Below are positions 4,201 through 34,428 of a DNA stretch of 64,000 bases, in pieces. Where the stretch lies: assembly GCA_021793575.1 (NCBI GenBank), contig JAJYSM010000001.1, positions 3,371 to 67,370 on the forward strand. Direction: 5' to 3'. This DNA is from Pseudomonadota bacterium. GTDB lineage: Bacteria > Pseudomonadota > Gammaproteobacteria > Xanthomonadales > Rhodanobacteraceae. Position 1 is the first letter of the stretch; every line of letters starts with the position of its first letter. Below the pieces are notes generated by a model. The model made no database searches and was not told the origin of the DNA. It saw only the letters and a program-made list of their open reading frames with translations. The position numbers and the translations under genes are program-made.

Positions 4201-6729
4201 TCAGGCCTCGGCTTTCGCCGCCGCGGTCTTGCCGGTGGCCGCTTTCCGGGTGGCCGTTTTCTTCGTGGCGGTCTTGCGCGCGGCGGTATTCTTGCTGGCC
4301 GCGGTTTTCTTCGGCGCCGCCCGTTTCGCGATGGCCTTGCTGGCCGCGGTCTTGCTGGCGGGCGCCTTCGGCACGGCGGCTTTCTTGACGGTCGCTTTCT
4401 TGCTGGCGGTCTTCTTGCCGAAGCGGCCCTTGCGCACCGGCGCGGCGGCGAGCAGCTCCAGGCACTGCGCCTCGGTCAGCTCCTTCGGCTCCTGCTCTTT
4501 CGGAATGCGCGCGTTCTTCTCGCCGTCGGTGATGTAGGCGCCGTAGCGGCCGTTCAGCACCTGCACGCCGTTGCCGAAGTCGAGGATCAGCCGGTTCGCC
4601 AGCATCTCCAGCTTCTCGGCCACGATCTGCAGCGCGCGCGGCAGATCGATGGTGTACGGGTCGTCCTCGGGCTTGAGCGAGGCATAGGTGCTGCCCTGCT
4701 TCACGAACGGCCCGAAACGGCCGACGCCCACGCTCACCGCGTCGCCGTTTTCCGCCTCCCCCAGCTGGCGCGGCAGCTTGAACAGCTCCAGCGCGTCGGC
4801 CAGGCTGATGGTGTGCATGCTCTGGCCGGTGCGCAGGCTGGCGAACGCGGGCTTGTCCTCGTCCTCCTTGGTGCCGATCTGCGCGAACGGCCCGTAGCGG
4901 CCCAGCCGCACCGATACCGGCTTGCCGGTTTTCGGATCGACGCCCAAATCGCGCGCGCCGGTGGCCTCGTTGCGGTCGACCGACTCGGTCTTCTCGTCCA
5001 CCTGCTGCTTGAACGGCAGCCAGAAGCGCTCCATCAGCGGCACCCACGCCTCCTCGCCGCGGCTGACCGCGTCCAGCTCGTCCTCCATCTTGGCGGTGAA
5101 GTCGTAGTCGACGTAGCGGGTGAAGTGCTGGGTCAAGAACTTGCTGACCGCGCGGCCGACGTCGCTGGGCTTGAAGCGGCGGCTGTCGAGGATCACGTAC
5201 TCGCGGTTCTGCAGCACCTGGATGATGCTGGCGTAGGTGGACGGCCGGCCGATGCCGTGCTCCTCCAGCGCCTTGACCAGGCTCGCCTCGGAATAGCGCG
5301 GCGGCGGCTCGGTGAAATGCTGGTCGGCGGCGATCTCGTGCAGCGGCACCTGCTCGCCTGCCAGCATGCGCGGCAGGCGGCGGCCCTCGTCGTCGTCCTC
5401 GGCCGTTTTCTGATCGCGGCCCTCCTCGTACACGGCGAGGAAGCCCGGATCGACCACGGTGGTGCCGCTGGCGCGGAACGAGGCATCGCCACCGGCCACG
5501 TGCGGCACCGCAAACTCCACCGAGACGGTGTTGAGCGTGGCGTGGATCATCTGGCAGGCTACGGTGCGCTTCCAGATCAGCTCGTACAGCTTGCGCTGGT
5601 CGTCATTGAGAAACGCCGCCACCGCCTTCGGCGTATGCATGGCGGAGGTCGGACGGATCGCCTCATGCGCCTCCTGGGCGTTCTTCGACTTGGTCTTGTA
5701 GACCTGCGCCGCATCTGGAAGCGCCTTGGCGCCGAAGTCGCGCGCGATCAGCTGACGCAGCTCGGCCACCGCATCGTCGCCGAGCATGGTGGAGTCGGTA
5801 CGCATGTAGGTGATCAGGCCGACGTTGCCCTCGTCGCCCAGCGCCACGCCCTCGTACAGGCCCTGCGCCACCTTCATCGTGCGGCTGGTGGTGAAGCCGA
5901 GCTTGCGCGCGGCCTCCTGCTGCAGCGTGGAGGTGGTGAACGGCGCGGCCGGGCGCCGCTTGCGCTCCTTCGAGCTGACGTCACTGACGGTGAGGCGGCC
6001 GCGCGCGGCCTGCTTCAGCGCGTCGCGGGCGGCCATGGCGTCAGCTTCGGCGGTGAGGTCGAACTGTTCGAACTTCTTGCCGTTGAGCTTGGAGAGGCGC
6101 GCCGTGAAATCGCCCTCCGCATGCTGCAGCTGCGCCTCGATGGTCCAGTATTCGCGCGCCTTGAACGCCTCGATCTCCTCCTCACGCTCGACGATCATGC
6201 GCAGCGCCGGCGACTGCACGCGGCCGGCCGACAGCCCGCGCTGCACCTTGCGCCAGAGCACCGGCGAAAGGTTGAAGCCGACCAGGTAATCCAGCGCGCG
6301 GCGCGCCTGCTGCGCGTCGACCAGGTCGTGCGAGAGCTGGCGCGGGTTGGCCACGGCGGCCTTGATCGCCTTCGGGGTGATCTCGGAGAACACCACCCGA
6401 TGCAGCCGCTTGCCTTCGGTAAGACCGCGCTCCTTGAGGATCTCGCTGATATGCCAGCTGATCGCCTCGCCTTCGCGATCCAAGTCGGTTGCCAGATAGA
6501 TGTCGTCGGCCAGCCTGGCCGCCTTGGCGATCGCGTCGACGTGCTTCTCGTTGCGCTCGATCACCTCGTAGGCCATGGTGAAACCGTGCTCGGTATCGAC
6601 CGCGCCCTCTTTCGGCTTCAGGTCACGCACGTGGCCGTAGGAAGCCAGGACATGAAAATCCTTGCCGAGGTATTTGTTGATCGTCTTGGCCTTGGCCGGC
6701 GATTCGACGATGAGCAGGTTTTTTGCCAT
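4201..6729 (-). CDS. topA: DNA topoisomerase I with Lys/Ala-rich C-terminal tail
   Basis: LLIVESPAKAKTI, ATDLDREGEAI, SAGRVQS, ITYMRTDS (catalytic Tyr), QEAHEAIRPT. Confidence 0.98.
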   Translation of the reverse strand: MAKNLLIVESPAKAKTINKYLGKDFHVLASYGHVRDLKPKEGAVDTEHGFTMAYEVIERNEKHVDAIAKAARLADDIYLATDLDREGEAISWHISEILKERGLTEGKRLHRVVFSEITPKAIKAAVANPRQLSHDLVDAQQARRALDYLVGFNLSPVLWRKVQRGLSAGRVQSPALRMIVEREEEIEAFKAREYWTIEAQLQHAEGDFTARLSKLNGKKFEQFDLTAEADAMAARDALKQAARGRLTVSDVSSKERKRRPAAPFTTSTLQQEAARKLGFTTSRTMKVAQGLYEGVALGDEGNVGLITYMRTDSTMLGDDAVAELRQLIARDFGAKALPDAAQVYKTKSKNAQEAHEAIRPTSAMHTPKAVAAFLNDDQRKLYELIWKRTVACQMIHATLNTVSVEFAVPHVAGGDASFRASGTTVVDPGFLAVYEEGRDQKTAEDDDEGRRLPRMLAGEQVPLHEIAADQHFTEPPPRYSEASLVKALEEHGIGRPSTYASIIQVLQNREYVILDSRRFKPSDVGRAVSKFLTQHFTRYVDYDFTAKMEDELDAVSRGEEAWVPLMERFWLPFKQQVDEKTESVDRNEATGARDLGVDPKTGKPVSVRLGRYGPFAQIGTKEDEDKPAFASLRTGQSMHTISLADALELFKLPRQLGEAENGDAVSVGVGRFGPFVKQGSTYASLKPEDDPYTIDLPRALQIVAEKLEMLANRLILDFGNGVQVLNGRYGAYITDGEKNARIPKEQEPKELTEAQCLELLAAAPVRKGRFGKKTASKKATVKKAAVPKAPASKTAASKAIAKRAAPKKTAASKNTAARKTATKKTATRKAATGKTAAAKAEA

Positions 6730-23180: not shown

Positions 23181-23594
23181 TCAGAGGCCGCCCAGCGCCG
23201 CCGCCAGAGCGTCCAGCCCGATGCGGTAGCTGGAGCGCATGGCCGCCTCGGCCATGCGCTCGGCGTCTCCCAGCACATCGAAATCGGACGACCAGGCCAC
23301 CAGGCATTGCGCGCCGTCGGGGTGCACCTCCAGCCGCGAGCGGCAGGCCTGCAGCGGCAGCGAGCCGCCGACCAGCGCGTACGCGTAGCGATACGCCGCA
23401 TCGTTGCGCGCCTCCAGCCGCTCCACCGTGCGGCTGCCATCGGCGTAGTGCAGGGTGCGGATGCGTCCCTCCCACGACAGGTCGAGCCGGCGTACCTGCG
23501 GGTGCCAGCGATGCAGCCCGCCGAAATCGCCGATCAGCGCCCACGCCGCCTCGGCGGGACAGTACAGACGCTCGGTTACATGGATGCTCGTCAT
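23181..23594 (-). CDS. SRPBCC / polyketide-cyclase-2 domain protein
   Basis: AWALIGDFGGLHRWHP, ERLEARN...YAYAL, VAWSSDF pattern. Confidence 0.8.
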   Translation of the reverse strand: MTSIHVTERLYCPAEAAWALIGDFGGLHRWHPQVRRLDLSWEGRIRTLHYADGSRTVERLEARNDAAYRYAYALVGGSLPLQACRSRLEVHPDGAQCLVAWSSDFDVLGDAERMAEAAMRSSYRIGLDALAAALGGL

Positions 23595-23897
23595 GGCCAC
23601 CTGCCGGGTCGACCGCGCACAGCCTTGCAGGCAAGCAGGCAAGAGGCGGGCCAAGACGCACCGCGTAGCCGGACGCCATGCGCGGCCGGGCGCGCCGCAC
23701 GTTGTTGCTTTAATGGCGCAGCGCTGCCGTGACAGAGCGTGCCAAAGGCCGCACGCGGCGTGCGTTTCATGCTGCGCTGCAGTTTGCGGCAGGCGCGCCA
23801 CGGCGCGATGCTTGAGACCGTTCTGCCAGCGTCAGGCCGCGACCTTCGCGGCACAATCGCAATCCATCGCGAGCGGATGCGCTGGCAGCAAGGGAGC

Positions 23898-25853
23898 ATG
23901 CTCATGAGCCACGTCCTGTCGGCCCGACCGCCGTCGTCGCAGATCACCCGTCTGCTGCAGGCGCGCACCGGGATGACCCAGGTGGCTGCCCACGTCGCCA
24001 AGTCCTGGGATCGCTGCCTCAACCGCTACAGCATGGAGCCCGACGCCGAGCGCAACACCATCGTGCTCGATGCCGACTCGGTACGCGCGCGGCAGCAGAC
24101 CTTCGGCGAGCTGCTCGGGGTGGCCCGCGCAGAGATGGAAAACCTGTACGAGCAGATCGCCGGCTCCGGCTACGCGGTGATCCTCAGCGACGCCGATGCG
24201 GTGGTGCTCAGCGCGATCACCGACCCGGGTCTGAAGCGCGAATTTCGCGGCGCCGGGCTGTGGATCGGCGCGGTGTGGAGCGAGCAGAACGAAGGCACCA
24301 ATGGCCTCGGCACCGCAATCGCCGAGCGCATGCCGGTGACCGTGCACTGCGGCGAGCATTTCCGCCGCTACAACGTGGGGCTGTCGTGCTGCGGCGCGCC
24401 GATCCTGGATGTCGACGGCAGCGTGCTGGCGGTGCTGGACGCCTCGGCCGCCAGCTCGGCCGACACCCGGCCGGTGCAGAGCCACACCATGGCGCTGGTC
24501 AGCATGTCGGCCAACCTGATCGCGCGCTGCCATTTTCTCAGCCGCTTCAAGGATGCCTGGGTGCTGCGCTTCCACAGCCGCGCCGAATTCGTCGGCCTGC
24601 TGCACGAGGCGCTGATGGCGATCGACGGCAACGGCCGCATCCTCGCGGTCAACGAGAGCGCGGTGGTGCAGCTTGGCATGAGCACGCGAGCGCAGCTGGT
24701 CGGCCGGCTGCTGGACGATATCCTGCCGTTCGACTTCGCCACGCTGGAGCAGCGCGCGTCGAGCGAGCCGGCCTCGCTGTGGCCGATGCGCGACATCGCC
24801 TACGGCCGCCGCTTCTTTGCCAACGCGCGCGCACCGCTGGGCCACCATCACCGGGCGCTGCCCGCGCCTGCGGTCGCGCCCACGGTGGCCGCGGTGGTGC
24901 CGGCGCGCCAGCACGTCGGCAGCGATCCGCGCATGCAGCACAACCTCAACTGCGGCCGGCAGCTGTTCGGCCGGCGCGTGCCGATCCTGCTGCAGGGCGC
25001 CACCGGCACCGGCAAGGAAGTGTTCGCCAAGGCGCTGCACCGAGCCAGCAGCTGGGCCGAGCGTCCGTTCGTGGCGGTCAACTGCGCGGCGATTCCGGAG
25101 GCGCTGATCGAGAGCGAGCTGTTCGGCTACACCCGCGGCGCGTTCACCGATGCGGCGCGCGAGGGGCACGTGGGCAAGATCCGCCAGTCCAGCGGCGGCA
25201 CGCTGTTCCTGGACGAGATTGGCGACATGCCGCTGGCGCTGCAGACGCGCCTGCTGCGCGTGCTGGAGGAGCACGAGATCGTCCCGCTCGGCGGCGACAG
25301 CGCGATTCCGGTCGACCTGCACCCGATCAGCGCCACCCACCACGACCTGCTGCAGATGGTGCAGCTGGGCACCTTCCGCGAGGATCTGTATTACCGCCTC
25401 AACGGCATCACGCTGGATCTGCCCACGCTGCGCGAGCGCACCGACAAGCGCGAGCTGATCCAGACCCTGCTGGCCGAGGAAGCTTCGCAAGGGCGGCCGC
25501 CCGGGATCGATGAAGCGGCGCTGCAGCGCCTGCTGGACTATCCCTGGCCGGGCAACATCCGCCAGCTGCGCAACGTGCTGCGCACCGCCGCCGCGCTGGG
25601 CGGCGACCGCGGCTGCATCGGCCTCGCCCACCTGCCGCGCGAGATCACCGGCGAGCACCGGCATGCGGTCGTCGCCGCACCCGCGCCGGGCAGCGACGAG
25701 CCCGGGCCGCTGCGCACCGCCGAGCGCGACGCGCTGCGGCGCGAGCTGGAGCGCATGCACTGGAACATCAGCCGCACCGCCGAGCTGCTAGGCGTGAGTC
25801 GCAACACGCTGTACCGCAAGATCCGCAAGCACGAAATCGTGCTGCCCGACTGA
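23898..25853 (+). CDS. GAF-domain sigma-54-dependent activator (AcoR-like)
   Basis: GTNGLGT GAF motif, GATGTGKE Walker A, ESELFG-GAFTDA, FLDEIGD, WPGNIRQL, Fis-type HTH (NISRTAELLGVSRNTLYRK). Confidence 0.92.
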   Translation: MLMSHVLSARPPSSQITRLLQARTGMTQVAAHVAKSWDRCLNRYSMEPDAERNTIVLDADSVRARQQTFGELLGVARAEMENLYEQIAGSGYAVILSDADAVVLSAITDPGLKREFRGAGLWIGAVWSEQNEGTNGLGTAIAERMPVTVHCGEHFRRYNVGLSCCGAPILDVDGSVLAVLDASAASSADTRPVQSHTMALVSMSANLIARCHFLSRFKDAWVLRFHSRAEFVGLLHEALMAIDGNGRILAVNESAVVQLGMSTRAQLVGRLLDDILPFDFATLEQRASSEPASLWPMRDIAYGRRFFANARAPLGHHHRALPAPAVAPTVAAVVPARQHVGSDPRMQHNLNCGRQLFGRRVPILLQGATGTGKEVFAKALHRASSWAERPFVAVNCAAIPEALIESELFGYTRGAFTDAAREGHVGKIRQSSGGTLFLDEIGDMPLALQTRLLRVLEEHEIVPLGGDSAIPVDLHPISATHHDLLQMVQLGTFREDLYYRLNGITLDLPTLRERTDKRELIQTLLAEEASQGRPPGIDEAALQRLLDYPWPGNIRQLRNVLRTAAALGGDRGCIGLAHLPREITGEHRHAVVAAPAPGSDEPGPLRTAERDALRRELERMHWNISRTAELLGVSRNTLYRKIRKHEIVLPD

Positions 25854-25865
25854 ATCCGGCCCGCG

Positions 25866-28283
25866 CTAATCGGCGGTGGCGGTGGCGGCGGCGCCGAAGT
25901 CGTAGCGCAGCCCCACCAGCCAGGCGCGCGGCGCGCCTGGCGCCACAAAAAGGGTCGAGCTGCCGGGACCGCTGAGGTCGATCAGCCGGTTTGGCGTATC
26001 GAACACATTGGTGCCCAGCTGGCCGCTGATGGCGTAGCGGCGGTCGAGCGCGTTGTCGACGCGGGTGAACAGCGCCAGCCGTCGCGTGGCCTGATAGTGC
26101 ACGTCCAGCGCCAGCACCGCGTAGCCGGCGAGCGCGCCGTGGCGGTCGCGGTTGTTCTCGTCGCCCACGGCGAACTGGCGCGAACTGGCGCGCAGGTTGC
26201 CGCCGACCGACCACTGCGGGTCGAGCTGGTATTCAGCGGAAAAATTGAACAACCGGCGCGGCACGCCGGGCAGCCGGTCGCCGCGGCGCACGTGGATCAC
26301 GCCGCTGCCATCGGCGCTGGAGTTGGCGCTGCTCTGCGCGTCGAACGGGCTGCCATAGGTGGCGCTGACCAGGCTGAAGTTGGCCTGCCATTCAAGCCGG
26401 CCGAGCTTGCCGCCGAGCCCCATGTCCACGCCCTGGCGCAGCGTGCGCGGCACGTTGGCGAAATAGCCCTGGCCGCTGCCGCCGGTGTAGATGGTGAGGA
26501 TGTCGTGGCTGACCTGGCTGTAGTACGGCGCGATGTTCCAGTGCAGGTCGCCGCCGGCGAAGTTGCCGCGCAGGCCGCCGCTGAGGGTTTTGACCACCAC
26601 CGGGCGCAGCGGCGGATCGCCGGTGAAGTCGTTCGGCAGCGCGCACGGCGCGGCCGGATCGGCGCACTCGAACTCGATCGGCGTCGGCGTGCGCATGCCC
26701 TCGCCGTAGTTCAGATAGCTGCCGAACTGCGGCGTGATCGCCCACGTCACGCCCACGCTGGGATTGAAGCGGTGGAAGCTCTGCCGGCCGTTGATCTGCG
26801 GCTTCACGCCGGAGCGGTCGCGCACGGCCAGCTGGCTGTGGTTGTAGCGACCGCCGAAACTCAGATGCACGCCGTGCGGCAGCGCCAGCACATCCAGCAG
26901 GTACACGCCGTAGCTGCGATTGGAGGTGCCCGCGTAAGTGATCGGCGGCACGCCGAACGGCAGCAGACCCACGGCATCGCCGCGCTGCGCGACGCTGTAG
27001 GGAAAGTAGGCCGGCTGGCCGTACTGGCTGAACGCGCTGGCGCCGGCATCCAGGCTTACGCCGCTGGTGAACTGGTTGTCGCGCCCCCACAGGCGGCCGT
27101 CATCCACCGCCTGCAGCGAGCCGCCGTAGCCGCGGGTATGCAGATTGCCGAGCACGTTCCAGGCGGGCAGGTTGTTGAGGGTCGCCGCGGGCTGCCGCGG
27201 ATCGTAGGCCGGGCTTACTCCGGCAAAGTAGAACTGGCCGAGCGAGCCAGGATCGAACGGGCCGTTGACGGCATAGCCCAGCGGGCCGTCGGTGGCCGCG
27301 TTGTAGCTGCTGAAGCTGGCGGTGTTGCTGTTGAAGCCGCGGCTCTGCGAGATGCGCAGGTAGGCGTCTGCCTGCAGCGCCCAGCCCGCTTCGAGCTGAC
27401 GCGAGCCTTGCAGGTTGAACTGACTGAGATGGTTGATCGCGTAGTCCGGCCAGGTGTAGGCGACGGCCGGGGTGCGCATCCATGCCACCGGAATCGTCTG
27501 GGTGCCGAACAGCCGGCTGTGCGCGCCGGTGTAGCTCAGCATCACGCGGGTGTTTTCGTCCGGCCGCCAGTCGCCGCGCACGAAGCCCTGCTGCACCCGG
27601 CTCGACGCATGGTCGCGCCAGCCGCTCTCGTAGTCGCTGCTGGCGCCGGCGTAAATCCCGAAGTGCTGGCTGTGGGCGCCGAAATCCACGTCGGTCTGCA
27701 GCCGCCCCCACGAGCCGCCGGACACATCCAGTGATCCACCCGGGTCGCTGAAGCCGCTCTTGCTGGTCAGCAGCAGCGCAGCGGCCAGCGTGTTGAGGCC
27801 GTACAGCGGATCGGAGCCGGGCACCAGCTCGACGTCGCTCAGGGCGAAGTCGGGAATGAAATCCCAGTTCATCGTTTCGGCAAACGGCTCGTTCTGGCGC
27901 ACGCCGTCCATGTAGACGGAAATCCCGGACGGTGAGCCCAGCAGCGGCGACAGCGTGAAGCCGTGAAAATACAGGTTGCCCTGCCACGGATTGCCCTGCG
28001 ACTGGGTCAGGCTGATGCCCTGGAAATTCTGCTGCAGCAATTCGGTCAGCGACTGTCCGTGCAGCTGGCGGATATCGTCGGCCTGGGCGCTCTGCACGTT
28101 CAGCGGAATCTGCTGCACGGGCACGTCAAACCCCGGTAGCGGCGCCACCCCGACCACCTTCACCTCGTGCAGCTGCTGCACCGGCGGATCGGCCCGCGCC
28201 GGCCGCTGCATCGCCACGCCGAGCAGAAGCAGCAGCGCCGTGCAGGCGCGTGCGCGGCGGCGTGGGCGGAGCATCAAAGGCAT
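25866..28283 (-). CDS. TonB-dependent outer-membrane receptor
   Basis: Signal peptide, plug region SPLLGSPSGISVYMDGVRQNEPF, C-terminal NALDRRY...PGAPRAWLVGLRYDF. Confidence 0.92.
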   Translation of the reverse strand: MPLMLRPRRRARACTALLLLLGVAMQRPARADPPVQQLHEVKVVGVAPLPGFDVPVQQIPLNVQSAQADDIRQLHGQSLTELLQQNFQGISLTQSQGNPWQGNLYFHGFTLSPLLGSPSGISVYMDGVRQNEPFAETMNWDFIPDFALSDVELVPGSDPLYGLNTLAAALLLTSKSGFSDPGGSLDVSGGSWGRLQTDVDFGAHSQHFGIYAGASSDYESGWRDHASSRVQQGFVRGDWRPDENTRVMLSYTGAHSRLFGTQTIPVAWMRTPAVAYTWPDYAINHLSQFNLQGSRQLEAGWALQADAYLRISQSRGFNSNTASFSSYNAATDGPLGYAVNGPFDPGSLGQFYFAGVSPAYDPRQPAATLNNLPAWNVLGNLHTRGYGGSLQAVDDGRLWGRDNQFTSGVSLDAGASAFSQYGQPAYFPYSVAQRGDAVGLLPFGVPPITYAGTSNRSYGVYLLDVLALPHGVHLSFGGRYNHSQLAVRDRSGVKPQINGRQSFHRFNPSVGVTWAITPQFGSYLNYGEGMRTPTPIEFECADPAAPCALPNDFTGDPPLRPVVVKTLSGGLRGNFAGGDLHWNIAPYYSQVSHDILTIYTGGSGQGYFANVPRTLRQGVDMGLGGKLGRLEWQANFSLVSATYGSPFDAQSSANSSADGSGVIHVRRGDRLPGVPRRLFNFSAEYQLDPQWSVGGNLRASSRQFAVGDENNRDRHGALAGYAVLALDVHYQATRRLALFTRVDNALDRRYAISGQLGTNVFDTPNRLIDLSGPGSSTLFVAPGAPRAWLVGLRYDFGAAATATAD

Positions 28284-28374
28284 CGGGAGACGGCTTCCTG
28301 GGCGGGTGCGAGGGTCGCACCATTGTTCGGCGGGCGGCCGCACAAAGTCACGACACACGCAGACGGCATCGCGG

Positions 28375-28417
28375 CGGCGCTGCCGCCGCTTCACGCCGGA
28401 GCGGGGCGGCAGCGCCG
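28375..28417 (-). terminator. 13-bp-stem hairpin between gfa and the TonB receptor (terminator or stabiliser)
   Basis: CGGCGCTGCCGCC / GGCGGCAGCGCCG inverted repeat; no clear U-tract. Confidence 0.4.
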
Positions 28418-28428
28418 GCGATCTGCGC

Positions 28429-29004
28429 TCAGGCGTGCAGCGTGCCCTTGGCCTTGGCCACGTGGGTGGCGATGGCGTCCATCAGCGGCGGCGACAGGCA
28501 GTCGTACGGCGGCAGCCCGAGCTCGTTGAGGCGGGCGCGCACCGCGTCCATCCGCTGCGGGTCGTAGCCCGCCTCGATGATCGAGGAGACGAACGCGGCG
28601 AACACCGGCGCCGACCAGCCCTCTTCGGACGACAGCTCGGTGTGCACGAAGTCGAGCCCGTGGAACGGATGATTGGTGTCCTCGATGCGACCGATCATGT
28701 GCGTGCCACACACGGTGCAGGCGTGGCGCTGGATCGCCGCCTTCGGGTCGACCACCGCCAGCTTGTCGCCGTTCTCCAGCACGCTGACCTTGTCGCGCGC
28801 GACCACCGCGACCTGCGAAAAGGTGGCGCCGGCGGGCTTCCAGCACTTGCTGCAGCCGCAGACGTGATTGTGCGCGGTCTGCGCGCCCACCTTCACCTTG
28901 ACCGGCTTGTCCCTGCACTTGCAACTCAGCGTGCCGCCGCCGAAGTGGTCCTTGCCCGGCTTGACGCCGTGATCGACCGCGGGATGAATCGAAACGGTAG
29001 CCAT
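28429..29004 (-). CDS. gfa: S-(hydroxymethyl)glutathione synthase (formaldehyde-activating enzyme)
   Basis: [27 protein letters not shown]-xx-[17 protein letters not shown]; GGAGG RBS. Confidence 0.96.
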
Positions 29005-29099
29005 GGTTTACCTCCAACTGGTGAGTGACGGCGGCGGGGTCGGCAGCTGCGGCTGCCGGGGTTCTTGCGGGTGCGTGCGGCCCGATGGCGGGGAAGTCC

Positions 29100-29318
29100 T
29101 CATGGCGTCATCGCCACGCCCAGGGTGCGCTCGAGCATCTGCCTGGCACCCGCCAGCCAGGTTTCGTCAGTGTCGCCGCGCAGGTCGCCCGGCGTGAACT
29201 GGATCAACTCGACATCGGCAACCAGCGACGACGGCCGCGCGACCTTCGTCTGCCGCACGGATGACGCCGATGGCGCCGCCAGCAGACAGACAAGCAAGGC
29301 GGTGGCCGCGCGCGTCAT
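29100..29318 (-). CDS. Small hypothetical protein with signal-peptide-like N-terminus
   Basis: ATG 3 nt after the frmA stop; MTRAATALLVCLLAAPSASS; no family recognised. Confidence 0.35.
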   Translation of the reverse strand: MTRAATALLVCLLAAPSASSVRQTKVARPSSLVADVELIQFTPGDLRGDTDETWLAGARQMLERTLGVAMTP

Positions 29319-29321
29319 GGC

Positions 29322-31305
<1,984 letters not shown>

Positions 31306-31346
31306 TCGTGTGTGCTCTGTAGGGGGTGTTCGTCTGAGGGATGACG

Positions 31347-32195
31347 CTACAAATCGTTCATCGTGCTACCGGCGCCCTCGCCGGTCATCTCAACGCCATG
31401 CTTCTTCAGGATCGCCTGCAGCTGCGGACGGTTGGTTTTGATCAGCGCGTCCAGGCGCGTCTTCAACGTCTTGTCGTCCTTGCGTACCGCCATCGACATT
31501 GGGAACGAGTACATCTCCGGCGAACCGGTGGCGCGAGAGTTCGGCAGCGTCACCGTGGTCAGATCGGGGAAGGCCTTCAGGTAGGCGCCAATCGATGGCT
31601 GCCAGGTAATCATCACGTCGACGGTCCCGTTCTCGACAGCCTCCAGCACGCTGCGTGGCGAGGTACCGCTCTTGCCGCCGACGTTGTACGGCTTGGCTGT
31701 GGTGACCATGCCGCGCAGCTGCAGCCCGGTCTCGACCGGCGTCTCCGACTCGAAGCCGACCTTCAGCTTGCGCAGCTCTGGCGAATTCAGGCTCTTGAGG
31801 TCGTAACCCTTGTCCTTCTTGAACACGAACACGTACGAGGACACGTAGTACGGGTCCGTCGTCAGCTCCTCCTGGTTGCCGTAAGGCATGTTCATCACCA
31901 CGTCGCAGTGGCCGCTGTCGAGGTTGCGCGACAGGTATTCGGAAAAGCCGCCGTGGCCGCGCGAATCGGCCCAGGTGTAGTCGAGCGTGGCGCCGAGCTT
32001 GCTCGCCACGTAGCGGGCCACGGCGTTCTCGAAGCCCTTGCCGTCGCGATCGGAGTACGGCAGGTAGTTGGGATCCGCGCACACCTTGAGCGTGCCGTGC
32101 GTCGCTGCGGCCGCCGCACGCGCCGGCGGCAGCGACGCGAAGGCGCACACCAGTGCGCCGGCTGCAAACATCATCGTGGGGTTGATGGATTTCAT
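31347..32195 (-). CDS. xoxJ: XoxJ/MxaJ-family periplasmic binding protein
   Basis: LKVCADPNYLPYS...GFEN, TDPYYVSSYVFV, FPMSMAVRKDD; directly downstream of the dehydrogenase. Confidence 0.88.
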   Translation of the reverse strand: MKSINPTMMFAAGALVCAFASLPPARAAAAATHGTLKVCADPNYLPYSDRDGKGFENAVARYVASKLGATLDYTWADSRGHGGFSEYLSRNLDSGHCDVVMNMPYGNQEELTTDPYYVSSYVFVFKKDKGYDLKSLNSPELRKLKVGFESETPVETGLQLRGMVTTAKPYNVGGKSGTSPRSVLEAVENGTVDVMITWQPSIGAYLKAFPDLTTVTLPNSRATGSPEMYSFPMSMAVRKDDKTLKTRLDALIKTNRPQLQAILKKHGVEMTGEGAGSTMNDL

Positions 32196-32234
32196 GGAGC
32201 TCTCCGGGCGGGTCCCGTGGTCGTGGACAATGCA

Positions 32235-32263
32235 ACGCGATGCCCCGCTGCAGGGCATCGCGT
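32235..32263 (-). terminator. Perfect 11-bp hairpin immediately after xoxF
   Basis: ACGCGATGCCC-cgctgca-GGGCATCGCGT; no U-tract, so more likely an mRNA stabiliser or attenuator. Confidence 0.5.
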
Positions 32264-32276
32264 CGCCTGCTGCAGC

Positions 32277-34076
32277 TCAGTTGAGGGCAAATACCATCAA
32301 CGTGCCACCGAGGTTGGTGTATTCGCCGAGAGTAGCGGCGGCACCGACCCCACCGAGGCCTTCGGTGGCCTTGGTCAGCCCGTTGGACAGGCCGATCCCG
32401 GCCCAGCCACCAATGCCACTGAGTACCGCCACATACTGCTTGCCAGCATACGTGTAAGTCATCGGGTTGCCGATGATTCCCGACGGGCACTTGAACTGCC
32501 ACAGCACCTTGCCGGTCTTCAGATCGACCGCACGGAACCAGCCGGTCAGTGTGCCATCGAAGGCCACGCCACCCTTGGTGGTCAGCGCGCCGCCCCAAGT
32601 CTGGAAACGATCATTGATGGCCCACTTGGTCTTGCCGGTCATCGGGTCGAAGGCGATGAAGCGCCCGCCGACGTCACCGTGGTTGTATGGGTACATGTTC
32701 ACCAGCGCACCGACGTACGGGAAGCCCGCCTTGTACTTCACGTTGAAGGCCTGGTAGTCCATGCATAAATGGTTGGTCGGCACAATGAACAGGCCGCTGG
32801 CCGGGTCATAGGCTGCCGGCCCCTCGTTCTTCGAGCCCTGCGAGGACGGACAGATATCCTTCACGTTGAAGCCTTCCTTGGTCATCTTGTCGGCATTGAC
32901 CACCGGACGGCCGGTCTTCATGTCAATAGAGCTGGCCCAGTTGACGGTGGAGTCGAACTTGTGCGCCGCCAGCAGCTTGCCATCGGCGCGGTTCCACACG
33001 TAGGCAAAGCCGTTGCGGTCGAAGTGGGTGATCGTCGGAATCGACTTGCCGTCGACCATGGTGTCGGTGAGGATGCTCTCGTTGATGCCGTCATAGTCCC
33101 ACTCGTCGTGCGGCGTCATCTGGAACACCCACTTGGCCTCGCCGGTGTCCGGATTGCGGGCGATGATCGACATCGAGTACTTGTTGTCGCCCGGGCGCTG
33201 GGTCGGGTTCCAGGTACCGGGATTGCCGGTGCCGTAATACAGCAGGTTGAGCTTGGGATCGTAGGTGTACCAGCCCCAGGTGGTACCACCGCCGAGTTTC
33301 CACTGGTCGCCCTGCCAGGATTTCAGGCTCGAGTTCTTGCCGACCGGCTTGCCGGTGGCGCCGTCGATCGTCGTCGCCGGGTTGAACATGATTTGCGCAT
33401 CCGGGCCGGTGCTGTAGGCGCGCCACAGCTGCTTGCCGGTGTTGATGTCGTCGGCGGTGATATACCCCCGCACACCGAATTCGCCGCCGGAGACCCCGGT
33501 GATCACCTTGTCCTTGACGACGAGGGGCGCCATGGTCTGAGTTGCACCCATTTCCGGATCGGCGTTCTTCGCCTTCCATTTGACCTTGCCGGTCGCAGCA
33601 TCCAGCGCGTACAGATAACCGTCCAGTGCGTTGGCGAAGATCATGCCGTTGCCATAGGCGACGCCACGGTTGACGACGTCACAGCAAGCTACGGTAGGCG
33701 CGAATTTGTCTTGGTCAGGCGTGAAGTTCCAGATCATGCGGCCGGGATCTTTCAAAGAGACCGCGTAGACATGGTTCGGAAACGAACTCTCGAAATACAT
33801 CATGTCGCCGATGATCAGAGGCTGGCCCTCGTGACCACGCAATGAGCCGGTCGACATGGTCCATGCCACGTGCAGGTTCTTCACGTTGGCGGTCGTGATC
33901 TGATCCAGCGCGCTGTAGCGCTGCGCAGTGTAGTTGCCACTGGGCATGACCCATTGGTTGGGATCCTTGGCCATCTGCAGCAACGAATCATTCGCCAGTA
34001 CGGCGACTGCAGGCAGACTGAGGCCGAGACCCAGGATGATTGACCATCTGCGGGAACGTGCGGGTTTGTTTTGCAT
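32277..34076 (-). CDS. xoxF: Lanthanide-type PQQ methanol dehydrogenase XoxF
   Basis: 599 aa with signal peptide; RGHEG, vicinal ACCDVVNRG, GGEFGVRG (Glu ligand), GTGNPG (Asn ligand), TPHDEWDYDGINE (extra Asp of Ln-binding enzymes); no mxaI follows. Confidence 0.9.
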   Translation of the reverse strand: MQNKPARSRRWSIILGLGLSLPAVAVLANDSLLQMAKDPNQWVMPSGNYTAQRYSALDQITTANVKNLHVAWTMSTGSLRGHEGQPLIIGDMMYFESSFPNHVYAVSLKDPGRMIWNFTPDQDKFAPTVACCDVVNRGVAYGNGMIFANALDGYLYALDAATGKVKWKAKNADPEMGATQTMAPLVVKDKVITGVSGGEFGVRGYITADDINTGKQLWRAYSTGPDAQIMFNPATTIDGATGKPVGKNSSLKSWQGDQWKLGGGTTWGWYTYDPKLNLLYYGTGNPGTWNPTQRPGDNKYSMSIIARNPDTGEAKWVFQMTPHDEWDYDGINESILTDTMVDGKSIPTITHFDRNGFAYVWNRADGKLLAAHKFDSTVNWASSIDMKTGRPVVNADKMTKEGFNVKDICPSSQGSKNEGPAAYDPASGLFIVPTNHLCMDYQAFNVKYKAGFPYVGALVNMYPYNHGDVGGRFIAFDPMTGKTKWAINDRFQTWGGALTTKGGVAFDGTLTGWFRAVDLKTGKVLWQFKCPSGIIGNPMTYTYAGKQYVAVLSGIGGWAGIGLSNGLTKATEGLGGVGAAATLGEYTNLGGTLMVFALN

Positions 34077-34157
34077 GTTGTACCCCCCTTTGCCGTGGAA
34101 CATGCCGAATGAGCGGCCGCGGGAGATGCCCGGGACCGTAATAGGTGACAGTTCCGA

Positions 34158-34173
34158 AGCAGTCTGCGTGCCA
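34158..34173 (-). promoter_or_regulatory. Sigma-54 (-24/-12) promoter of the xoxF operon
   Basis: Minus strand TGGCAC-GCAGA-CTGCT, exact GG-N10-GC, about 80 bp upstream of the xoxF ATG. Confidence 0.75.
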
Positions 34174-34428
34174 TCCGGGAAAACTTGAACAAAACCATGA
34201 AAATCAGATGGCTGTGAAACTTGAACCCGCGCGTTCTCCGGCAGATGGCGCAACCGGTGTGCTTATAACGAAACAGTCATTGCTGCACATTTGACTCACC
34301 CCGGTCGCCATATGGCGCCAGGTCAAACGTCTTGATCGCGCATCCAGGCAGACTCATCTGTCATGCAGACCACACGCAATCCATCGGAGGGCTCCTCCCG
34401 GCTCTCTCCATGCTCCAGAGGATGTCCC

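Follow-up and report, generated by a model that had tools for sequence, protein, structure and literature searches.

How is lanthanide-dependent methanol oxidation switched on in a bacterium outside the classical methylotrophs, and how are its cofactors supplied? Such oxidation is thought to be widespread in these organisms, and its regulation and cofactor supply are poorly known. The question is raised by a locus in a 64-kb stretch of DNA, here called the window, from a soil/groundwater bacterium of the Rhodanobacter family (Rhodanobacteraceae), a lineage which, as the original prediction for this DNA held, is not known for methylotrophy. We consider it probable that the locus is a chromosomal sigma-54-dependent operon which contains xoxF, xoxJ, a gene for a XoxG::c551 cytochrome, frmA, the remnant of a DUF2380 gene, gfa and a gene for a TonB-dependent receptor, with regulation, chemistry and cofactor supply along the lines set out below.

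The enzymes of the operon

Genes were called from an open reading frame (ORF) listing and from Pfam and NCBIfam profile scans of the window. The genes named in the original prediction are all present and form a co-oriented row on the minus strand, which in the direction of reading contains the following features.

32277..34076, minus strand: xoxF, lanthanide-type pyrroloquinoline quinone (PQQ) methanol dehydrogenase, 599 aa (TIGR03075, 698 bits, cut-off 480)
31347..32258, minus strand: xoxJ-like periplasmic binding protein (TIGR03871, 195 bits; best PDB match XoxJ 6onp with 107 bits, then MxaJ)
30532..31305, minus strand: two-haem c-type cytochrome, 257 aa, two CxxCH domains (profile and PDB matches)
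29322..30434, minus strand: frmA, S-(hydroxymethyl)glutathione dehydrogenase, 370 aa (TIGR02818, 726 bits, cut-off 544)
29100..29318, minus strand: small ORF of 72 codons, DUF2380/DUF3280 (PF11684) remnant (alignment to a relative's gene)
28429..29004, minus strand: gfa, S-(hydroxymethyl)glutathione synthase (TIGR02820, 326 bits, cut-off 235)
28377..28415, minus strand: inverted repeat GCGCTGCCGCC-N17-GGCGGCAGCGC with 11-bp arms, in the 145-bp spacer between gfa and the receptor gene (read from the sequence)
25866..28283, minus strand: TonB-dependent receptor, 805 aa, Plug and barrel domains (profile scans, AF2 model)

Family scores and aligned ligand residues bear out the earlier view of a lanthanide-type XoxF module joined to a glutathione-dependent formaldehyde route. 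The dehydrogenase scores 759, 731 and 682 bits against the solved XoxF structures 6oc5, 6dam and 4mae, compared with at most 649 bits against MxaF structures and at most 394 bits against ethanol dehydrogenases (PedH/ExaA). Its motifs HDEWDYDGINE (D-Y-D), ACCDVVNRG (the vicinal Cys pair), GGEFGVRG and GNPGTWN (Glu/Asn ligands) align to those of the same three XoxF structures, and the protein has the extra Asp two residues past the catalytic Asp which is the lanthanide signature. Neither the ORF listing nor the profile scans gave an MxaI-like small-subunit ORF in the module. The protein is of the XoxF type, nearer to XoxF than to MxaF or the ethanol dehydrogenases, with XoxJ- and XoxG-like partners adjoining. 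The xoxJ-like gene probably has its true start at 32195 (MKSINP...). The cytochrome is a fusion of a c551/c552-like N-terminal domain and a XoxG-like C-terminal domain. Residues 34-113 of the former match 2d0s (84 bits); in the latter, residues 141-245 match not only XoxG 6onq (39 bits) but also cytochrome domains from quinohaemoprotein alcohol dehydrogenases. The start of frmA was set from the sequence and from 370-aa orthologues. FrmA, Gfa and the FghA protein encoded outside the module all score above their equivalog cut-offs.

The small ORF between frmA and gfa has an intact counterpart at the same place in a relative, a 164-aa DUF2380/PF11684 homologue (L005:8342-8836, 91.7 bits). The two align at both ends: the small ORF retains the signal peptide and the final ~30 residues and has lost ~98 central residues by an in-frame deletion. 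In Oleiagrimonas soli the gene is reduced to its last 20 codons, a C-terminal trace, Dyella has none, and intact copies share contigs with the activator gene in many relatives. By these comparisons the DUF2380 gene is a usual part of the module, one that can be done without, and it is decaying here. The idea that the 72-aa product is a small lanthanide-binding protein was dropped once the ORF proved to be a deletion remnant. The best-kept stretch of DUF2380 is an acidic loop, DLRGDTD(E/A)TW, and the intact protein is secreted.

The inverted repeat in the spacer between gfa and the receptor gene has no T run and was not called as a terminator. It is a possible RNA stem-loop, which could set the ratio of enzyme transcript to receptor transcript. 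Terminator calls were at chance level, and no sigma-70-like promoter was found in the module.

The sigma-54 promoter and its proposed activator

A GG-N10-GC promoter in front of xoxF had been predicted, and this promoter is well supported. The elements which would control the operon are the following.

34158..34173, minus strand: sigma-54 promoter TGGCACGCAGACTGCT, -24 GG and -12 GC, 82 nt upstream of the xoxF ATG
34180..34206, minus strand: AT-rich block TGATTTTCATGGTTTTGTTCAAGTTTT, between the upstream block and the promoter, with a TGATT core which is invariant in the six-locus alignment
34245..34299, minus strand: upstream block GTGAGTCAAATGTGCAGCAATGACTGTTTCGTTATAAGCACACCGG..., with the dyad TGTGC-N22-GCACA, conserved across six orthologous loci
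23898..25853, plus strand: sigma-54 enhancer-binding protein of the AcoR/MimR type, 651 aa (Sigma54_activat, PF00158, 207 bits; lid; Fis-type helix-turn-helix (HTH), HTH_8)

In the window TGGCAC-N5-YTGCW is matched exactly by TGGCACGCAGACTGCT and by nothing else; the whole genome (3.2 Mb, 99.8% complete), in which rpoN is present, has 26 such matches, this one included. The region upstream of xoxF was aligned with those of five orthologous loci, the XoxF proteins of which are 70-91% identical, and GGCA and TGC, with unchanged spacing, are invariant in 6/6 of these regions. The conserved upstream block covers ~50 bp and lies ~100 bp upstream of the -24 element. Its dyad makes it a candidate binding site for the activator (upstream activating sequence, UAS), and the AT-rich block is a possible DNA-bending (IHF-like) site, so that activator site, bend and -24/-12 promoter would follow one another in the usual layout. 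A search of the rest of the genome, fghA included, gave no further copy of the UAS core. The intergenic parts of the module hold no other -24/-12 site, the rest lying inside coding sequence or on the wrong strand. When one mismatch is allowed the sigma-54 pattern is not enriched in the window (11 found, 7.4 expected), and only the exact, positioned and conserved site was counted. A one-mismatch site, TGGCAAAAAACCTGCT, lies at 6713-6728 of the window on the minus strand, at the 5' end of an 842-codon ORF (4201-6729, minus strand).

The activator gene converges on the 3' end of the operon, as had been stated, with the two stop codons 12 bp apart. Its product was originally described as a GAF-AAA-HTH protein. 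Profile matches confirm the AAA and HTH parts, and the GAF part was not detected in the activator: residues 1-348 gave no Pfam match to this domain at E <= 1, only a sub-threshold match to PAS. Orthologues of the activator carry MimR_N (PF26965), some homologues also carry GAF (PF01590), and JGI names homologues 'transcriptional regulator of acetoin/glycerol metabolism'. The protein is best placed in the AcoR/MimR group. It resembles the AcoR/MimR/DhaR regulators in having a MimR_N/GAF-like sensor, a PAS-like segment, an AAA+ sigma-54 domain and a Fis-type HTH, and differs from them in its presumed target, here xox and formaldehyde oxidation, and in its contact loop, which reads GAFTDA (residues ~423-428) where the canonical sequence is GAFTGA. 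GAFTDA is conserved in the orthologues of Rhodanobacter, Dyella, Oleiagrimonas and Coralloluteibacterium and also in 62%-identical relatives; such conservation across genera makes it a family trait and not a sign of decay. A 63%-identical homologue from another lineage sits between a PQQ dehydrogenase with a cytochrome c and a convergent frmA-gfa pair, neighbours which tie the activator subfamily to C1 oxidation more widely.

The rest of the pathway and a second dehydrogenase module

The module was originally taken to be self-contained, which it is not: the genome lacks pqqA-E, and other contigs carry fghA, fdh and the gene for a PQQ importer of the PqqU type. A search which finds pqqC in two genomes of the family did not find it in this genome, and tblastn with the PqqA-E queries from one of those two genomes gave no match to pqqA-E. 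The absence of pqqABCDE makes the organism a PQQ auxotroph. Of the other genes named for a whole-genome check, fghA is present on contig C78 (451 bits, cut-off 282) and a formate dehydrogenase alpha subunit, above cut-off, on contig C54, while hexulose-phosphate synthase of the ribulose monophosphate (RuMP) pathway was not found and neither was RuBisCO, the serine-cycle genes not having been searched for. A complete dissimilatory route from methanol to CO2 would therefore exist, spread over at least four contigs. The earlier suggestion that methanol is oxidised for energy gain rather than for assimilation fits this set of genes.

A second module is located on contig C64 (17205-26185). It contains exaC for an aldehyde dehydrogenase and genes for a D-Y-D PQQ alcohol dehydrogenase (39% identity to XoxF), for a MoxJ-like protein fused to cytochrome c, and for a TonB receptor. 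The module has a sigma-54 promoter of its own, TGGCACGGCTTCTGCT, at C64:24115 on the minus strand, and a divergent activator gene of the AcoR/MimR type, the product of which is 37% identical to the activator in the window and has the loop GAFTGA. Its receptor scores 648 bits on the PqqU model (NF041535) and, when aligned to E. coli PqqU, keeps F99, K274, R304, R365, R536, Q84 and Q121. It is a PqqU because it agrees with the published signature, Y/F/W99, R304 and R365 (PMC12124388). The PQQ dehydrogenases of the genome, two TIGR03075 matches, are all of the D-Y-D type, and with only lanthanide-type enzymes the cell has no calcium fallback.

The operon in the window could also serve mainly to detoxify formaldehyde, or another short alcohol or aldehyde, and methanol would then be neither the physiological substrate nor the inducer. 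Several observations agree with this: the operon includes frmA and gfa, which also adjoin genes of this activator family elsewhere, AcoR/MimR relatives sense carbonyl compounds, and XoxF enzymes are able to oxidise formaldehyde. We nevertheless find it unlikely, as the dehydrogenase is closest to the characterised methanol-oxidising XoxF enzymes, XoxJ- and XoxG-like partners are present, and the same genome has a separate module of the ethanol type.

The TonB-dependent receptor

The receptor encoded in the window scores 64 bits on the model which gives 648 for the C64 PqqU, and phmmer finds no match to any PDB sequence at 1e-5. The AlphaFold model (pLDDT 79) is by Foldseek closest to PqqU, with 9c4o at rank 1 (E = 5e-41) and 6v81 at rank 2, ahead of siderophore receptors. 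In a MAFFT alignment the receptor family has L/S/F at PqqU positions 99/304/365, is gapped at 274 and mostly has Q at 536. Every residue of the PQQ-binding signature is replaced, and by signature and score the receptor is not a PqqU. Experimentally confirmed lanthanide receptors have been described as having PqqU as their top PDB match with the PQQ-binding residues missing (preprint 10.64898/2026.07.10.737718). The receptor in the window shows both traits, PqqU as the top structural match and no PQQ signature. That phmmer gives no match to PqqU suggests a place outside the LutH/LanA cluster. Homologues with at least 62% identity are confined to Rhodanobacteraceae and the next ones are ~40% identical; the genome has no other PqqU/LutH-like receptor than this one and the C64 PqqU. 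One argument was rejected as too quick, namely that the window receptor must import lanthanide because the C64 receptor imports PQQ: the known lanthanide receptors also resemble PqqU, and a residue-by-residue comparison was made.

The linkage of the receptor to PQQ dehydrogenases was followed in a sample of 151 Rhodanobacteraceae genomes. A receptor homologue is present in 24 of these genomes, a PQQ alcohol dehydrogenase in 36 and both in 23, so the dehydrogenase is found in 23/24 genomes with the receptor against 13/127 of the others (Fisher p = 6e-17). The two genes are at most 10 kb apart in 19 of the 24 genomes. A PqqU-like gene accompanies the receptor in 16/16 receptor-carrying genomes, and 14 of these 16 are without pqqC. 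In Rhodanobacter glycinis the order is alcohol dehydrogenase, solute-binding protein (SBP)::cytochrome c, acetyl-CoA synthetase, receptor and pqqU, with the two receptors in tandem; two metagenome-assembled genomes (MAGs) have the tandem too, and in O. soli and another MAG the receptor gene and pqqU are convergent. pqqU follows directly after the activator gene, with a sigma-54 promoter of its own, in O. soli (TGGCATGCTGCTTGCT, L054:12047-12062, plus strand) and in a Rhodanobacter MAG (TGGCACAGACCTTGCT, L007:9929-9914, minus strand). PQQ import in these two appears to be sigma-54 controlled.

Two side observations belong here. The PqqU-like genes of five relatives (G061, G067, G068, G069 and G070) are reported with one internal TGA or TAG, which could point to pseudogenes, to errors in the assemblies or to read-through of a stop lying upstream. 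Receptor homologues of 34-40% identity (L059-L062) adjoin HisKA_3/GerE two-component genes, cytochrome b561-like genes and a gene for a 597-aa PQQ dehydrogenase; one two-component sensor near them has a LapD_MoxY_N domain, and these loci resemble the lanthanide-sensing PedS2/R2 or MxaY arrangements.

What does the receptor import? The periplasm is where lanthanide and PQQ both work, so that transport across the outer membrane would be sufficient for either, and the module contains no ABC transporter. We give close to an even chance to the view that the receptor imports a lanthanide or a lanthanide chelate. A wider version, which we put forward more tentatively and hold to be somewhat less likely than an even chance, is that the receptor would found a new family of lanthanide importers, with a PqqU-like fold and a rebuilt PQQ pocket, and would be the partner of PqqU in a two-receptor scheme. 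PQQ-auxotrophic Rhodanobacteraceae would then scavenge both cofactors into the periplasm without an inner-membrane transporter, both receptors and both dehydrogenase operons being controlled by dedicated sigma-54 activators of an AcoR/MimR subfamily, with the GAFTDA loop, which would sense C1/C2 substrates.

The receptor might instead be an additional, divergent PQQ transporter, which would suit an auxotroph; it would take up PQQ or a complex of PQQ with metal and not free or chelated lanthanide. PqqU is the closest solved fold, the C64 PqqU is the receptor's sole paralogue-level link in the genome, and some PqqU variants may co-transport metal (PMC12124388). This reading has rather little probability in our opinion: the residues corresponding to Y/F/W99, R304, R365, K274 and R536 are replaced throughout the receptor family, and with PqqU encoded in all 16 genomes that carry this receptor, often as the next gene, it would require two receptors for one ligand side by side.

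The substrate might also have nothing to do with quinoprotein cofactors. It could be an iron chelate for the cytochromes, copper or some other nutrient, in which case the position in the operon would say little. In source annotations the receptor has the generic label of an iron-complex receptor, the Foldseek matches to siderophore and copper receptors are weaker by only a small margin, and there is a weak TIGR01783 match. We hold this to be quite improbable, because the link to PQQ alcohol dehydrogenases is seen across 24 genomes, in operons of more than one kind (those of xoxF, of the ethanol type and of a 47% type), because 35-40% homologues too lie beside genes for PQQ dehydrogenases and MoxY-like two-component systems, and because the receptor has no STN/FecR-type signalling domain and no siderophore genes are found nearby.

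Is the locus portable?

The module had been thought of as a portable unit, and here the surroundings of the operon are informative. One further gene belongs to the conserved arrangement.

23181..23594, minus strand: SRPBCC (Polyketide_cyc2) gene (Pfam), divergent from the activator gene

The divergent pairing, which was correctly predicted, is also found in Dyella and Oleiagrimonas. Unrelated housekeeping genes flank the locus. Those on one side encode a pseudouridine synthase and a methyltransferase-like protein; those on the other encode an aldo-keto reductase, a TraB/GumN protein and AceK. The gene order SRPBCC, activator and receptor-gfa-frmA-cytochrome-xoxJ-xoxF recurs unchanged in Dyella thiooxydans ATSB10, where the flanks also hold the same pseudouridine synthase, methyltransferase-like and aldo-keto reductase genes. 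O. soli has the same locus and flanks with pqqU inserted. No integrase, transposase, tRNA or repeats were found at the borders of the module, and the G+C content at third codon positions (GC3) is 0.82-0.93, like that of the host. The overall G+C content is 0.60-0.65 across xoxF-xoxJ-cytochrome (30000-34000 in the window) and ~0.70 in the neighbours. Since GC3 over this stretch is still high, 0.82-0.88, the dip is mostly due to amino-acid composition and is no clear sign of recent transfer.

A self-contained island acquired horizontally, as originally suggested, would explain why the distribution is patchy, a receptor orthologue occurring in 1/9 sampled genomes of the organism's own genus and in 13/151 of the family; it would also accommodate the lower G+C of xoxF and a 92%-identical receptor in an ethanol-type operon of a related MAG. 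Such an island is nonetheless hard to reconcile with the same flanking genes in three genera, with the borders and GC3 just described, and with the fact that essential functions, PQQ supply, fghA and fdh, are encoded elsewhere, and we give it only a small chance. The picture is rather one of an ancestral locus with losses and some shuffling of modules, and not of a mobile island.

Comparison with known systems

The clustering of xoxF with glutathione-linked formaldehyde genes is already known. In Rhodobacter sphaeroides, Paracoccus aminophilus and Roseobacter strain La 6 xoxF5-xoxG(cycB)-xoxJ are clustered with adhI and gfa, and R. sphaeroides uses the pathway to oxidise methanol-derived formaldehyde to CO2 (PMC5934484). 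The Rhodobacter/Paracoccus clusters are like the present one in combining a lanthanide XoxF, a cytochrome and XoxJ with glutathione-dependent formaldehyde dehydrogenase and Gfa, with no MxaFI. The present cluster differs from them in its gammaproteobacterial host, in the order xoxF-xoxJ-cytochrome, in the two-domain fusion cytochrome, in the TonB-dependent receptor in the operon, in the sigma-54 promoter with an AcoR/MimR activator and in the lack of PQQ biosynthesis. In Methylorubrum extorquens there are a xox1 operon and a lut cluster encoding the LutH receptor, the LutAEF ABC transporter and lanmodulin (PMC7391723). In that organism the supply of lanthanide to XoxF, XoxG and XoxJ runs through a TonB-dependent receptor, as may be the case in the present module. 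LutH, however, is repressed by La and belongs to a separate cluster together with the ABC transporter and periplasmic lanthanide-binding proteins, and control is by two-component systems. The receptor described above is encoded inside the xox operon, the vicinity of which has neither an ABC transporter nor lanmodulin, and it is of a more remote sequence family. E. coli PqqU (YncD; PDB 6v81, 9c4o) provides the closest solved fold, and its true homologue is encoded in the second lanthanide alcohol dehydrogenase operon; the window receptor differs from it by the L/S/F at 99/304/365.

Control by sigma-54 has one precedent among PQQ alcohol dehydrogenases, exaA of Azospirillum brasilense Sp7, which is given as sigma-54 dependent where PMC6115532 cites Singh et al. 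2017. As far as that citation goes the likeness lies in the transcription of a PQQ alcohol dehydrogenase gene from a sigma-54 promoter, and the difference in that here the target is a XoxF operon and control would be by a dedicated AcoR/MimR-type activator and not by a two-component system. The ped cluster of Pseudomonas putida (PedH/PedE, PedS2/PedR2) likewise lets a non-methylotroph use a lanthanide PQQ alcohol dehydrogenase for energy, periplasmic lanthanide being sufficient. P. putida can synthesise PQQ and possesses an alternative, Ca-dependent enzyme, and a two-component lanthanide sensor switches between the two enzymes, whereas the present genome has only D-Y-D-type enzymes and the module has no such sensor. 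A XoxF from Xanthomonadales (Dokdonella) has been reported in a metaproteome (PMC8999231). In the literature we found no description of sigma-54/AcoR-type control of xoxF, of this system in Rhodanobacter or Dyella, or of the receptor family. The receptor is the newest element.

A model for the operon

The model postulates an AcoR/MimR-type activator with the GAFTDA loop which occupies the conserved dyad block, ~100 bp in front of the promoter. A small C1 compound or alcohol would be the signal, upon which the activator would remodel sigma-54 RNA polymerase at TGGCAC-N5-CTGCT. Periplasmic XoxF, loaded with lanthanide and scavenged PQQ, would oxidise methanol to formaldehyde and pass the electrons to the two-haem cytochrome. 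Gfa and FrmA would convert the formaldehyde to S-formylglutathione, and FghA and formate dehydrogenase, encoded elsewhere, would finish the oxidation to CO2. As there are no RuBisCO or RuMP genes, the cell would gain reducing power and no carbon. PQQ would be imported by the genuine PqqU of the second sigma-54 operon, that of the lanthanide-type ethanol dehydrogenase, and the receptor of the xox operon, which has the PqqU fold without the PQQ-binding residues, would most likely bring in lanthanide or a lanthanide chelate.

Several points weigh against this model. The operon is read from the sequence alone, and from the same source we infer the inducer, co-transcription through to the receptor gene and the substrate of the receptor. 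A promoter for the receptor gene alone, or an attenuator, could lie in the 145-bp spacer, where the stem-loop is found. Methanol as the substrate of XoxF is an assumption taken from family membership. The activator gene is 8 kb from the promoter, the binding site being a deduced one, and GAFTDA departs from the canonical loop. The argument for energy gain rather than assimilation draws, as regards assimilation genes, on the search for RuBisCO and hexulose-phosphate synthase. The alignment of the receptor barrel to PqqU is of low identity, which makes the equivalence of R304 and R365 less certain than that of Y99, and at 17-18% identity to PqqU the receptor is more remote than the published lanthanide receptors are according to their descriptions.

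Implications

The locus offers a conserved regulatory design for lanthanide-dependent methanol oxidation, in which sigma-54 and a dedicated activator take the place of the two-component systems of the model methylotrophs. The organism must obtain PQQ from neighbouring cells and lanthanides from its surroundings. The candidate receptor family is tightly linked to lanthanide quinoproteins, and its cultured carriers are D. thiooxydans ATSB10, O. soli and R. glycinis. The relatives labelled Rhodanobacter include MAGs which have groundwater-well codes in their names (FW106, FW021), and the use of methanol as an auxiliary energy source, together with the dependence on cross-fed PQQ, could bear on the ecology of these groundwater relatives.

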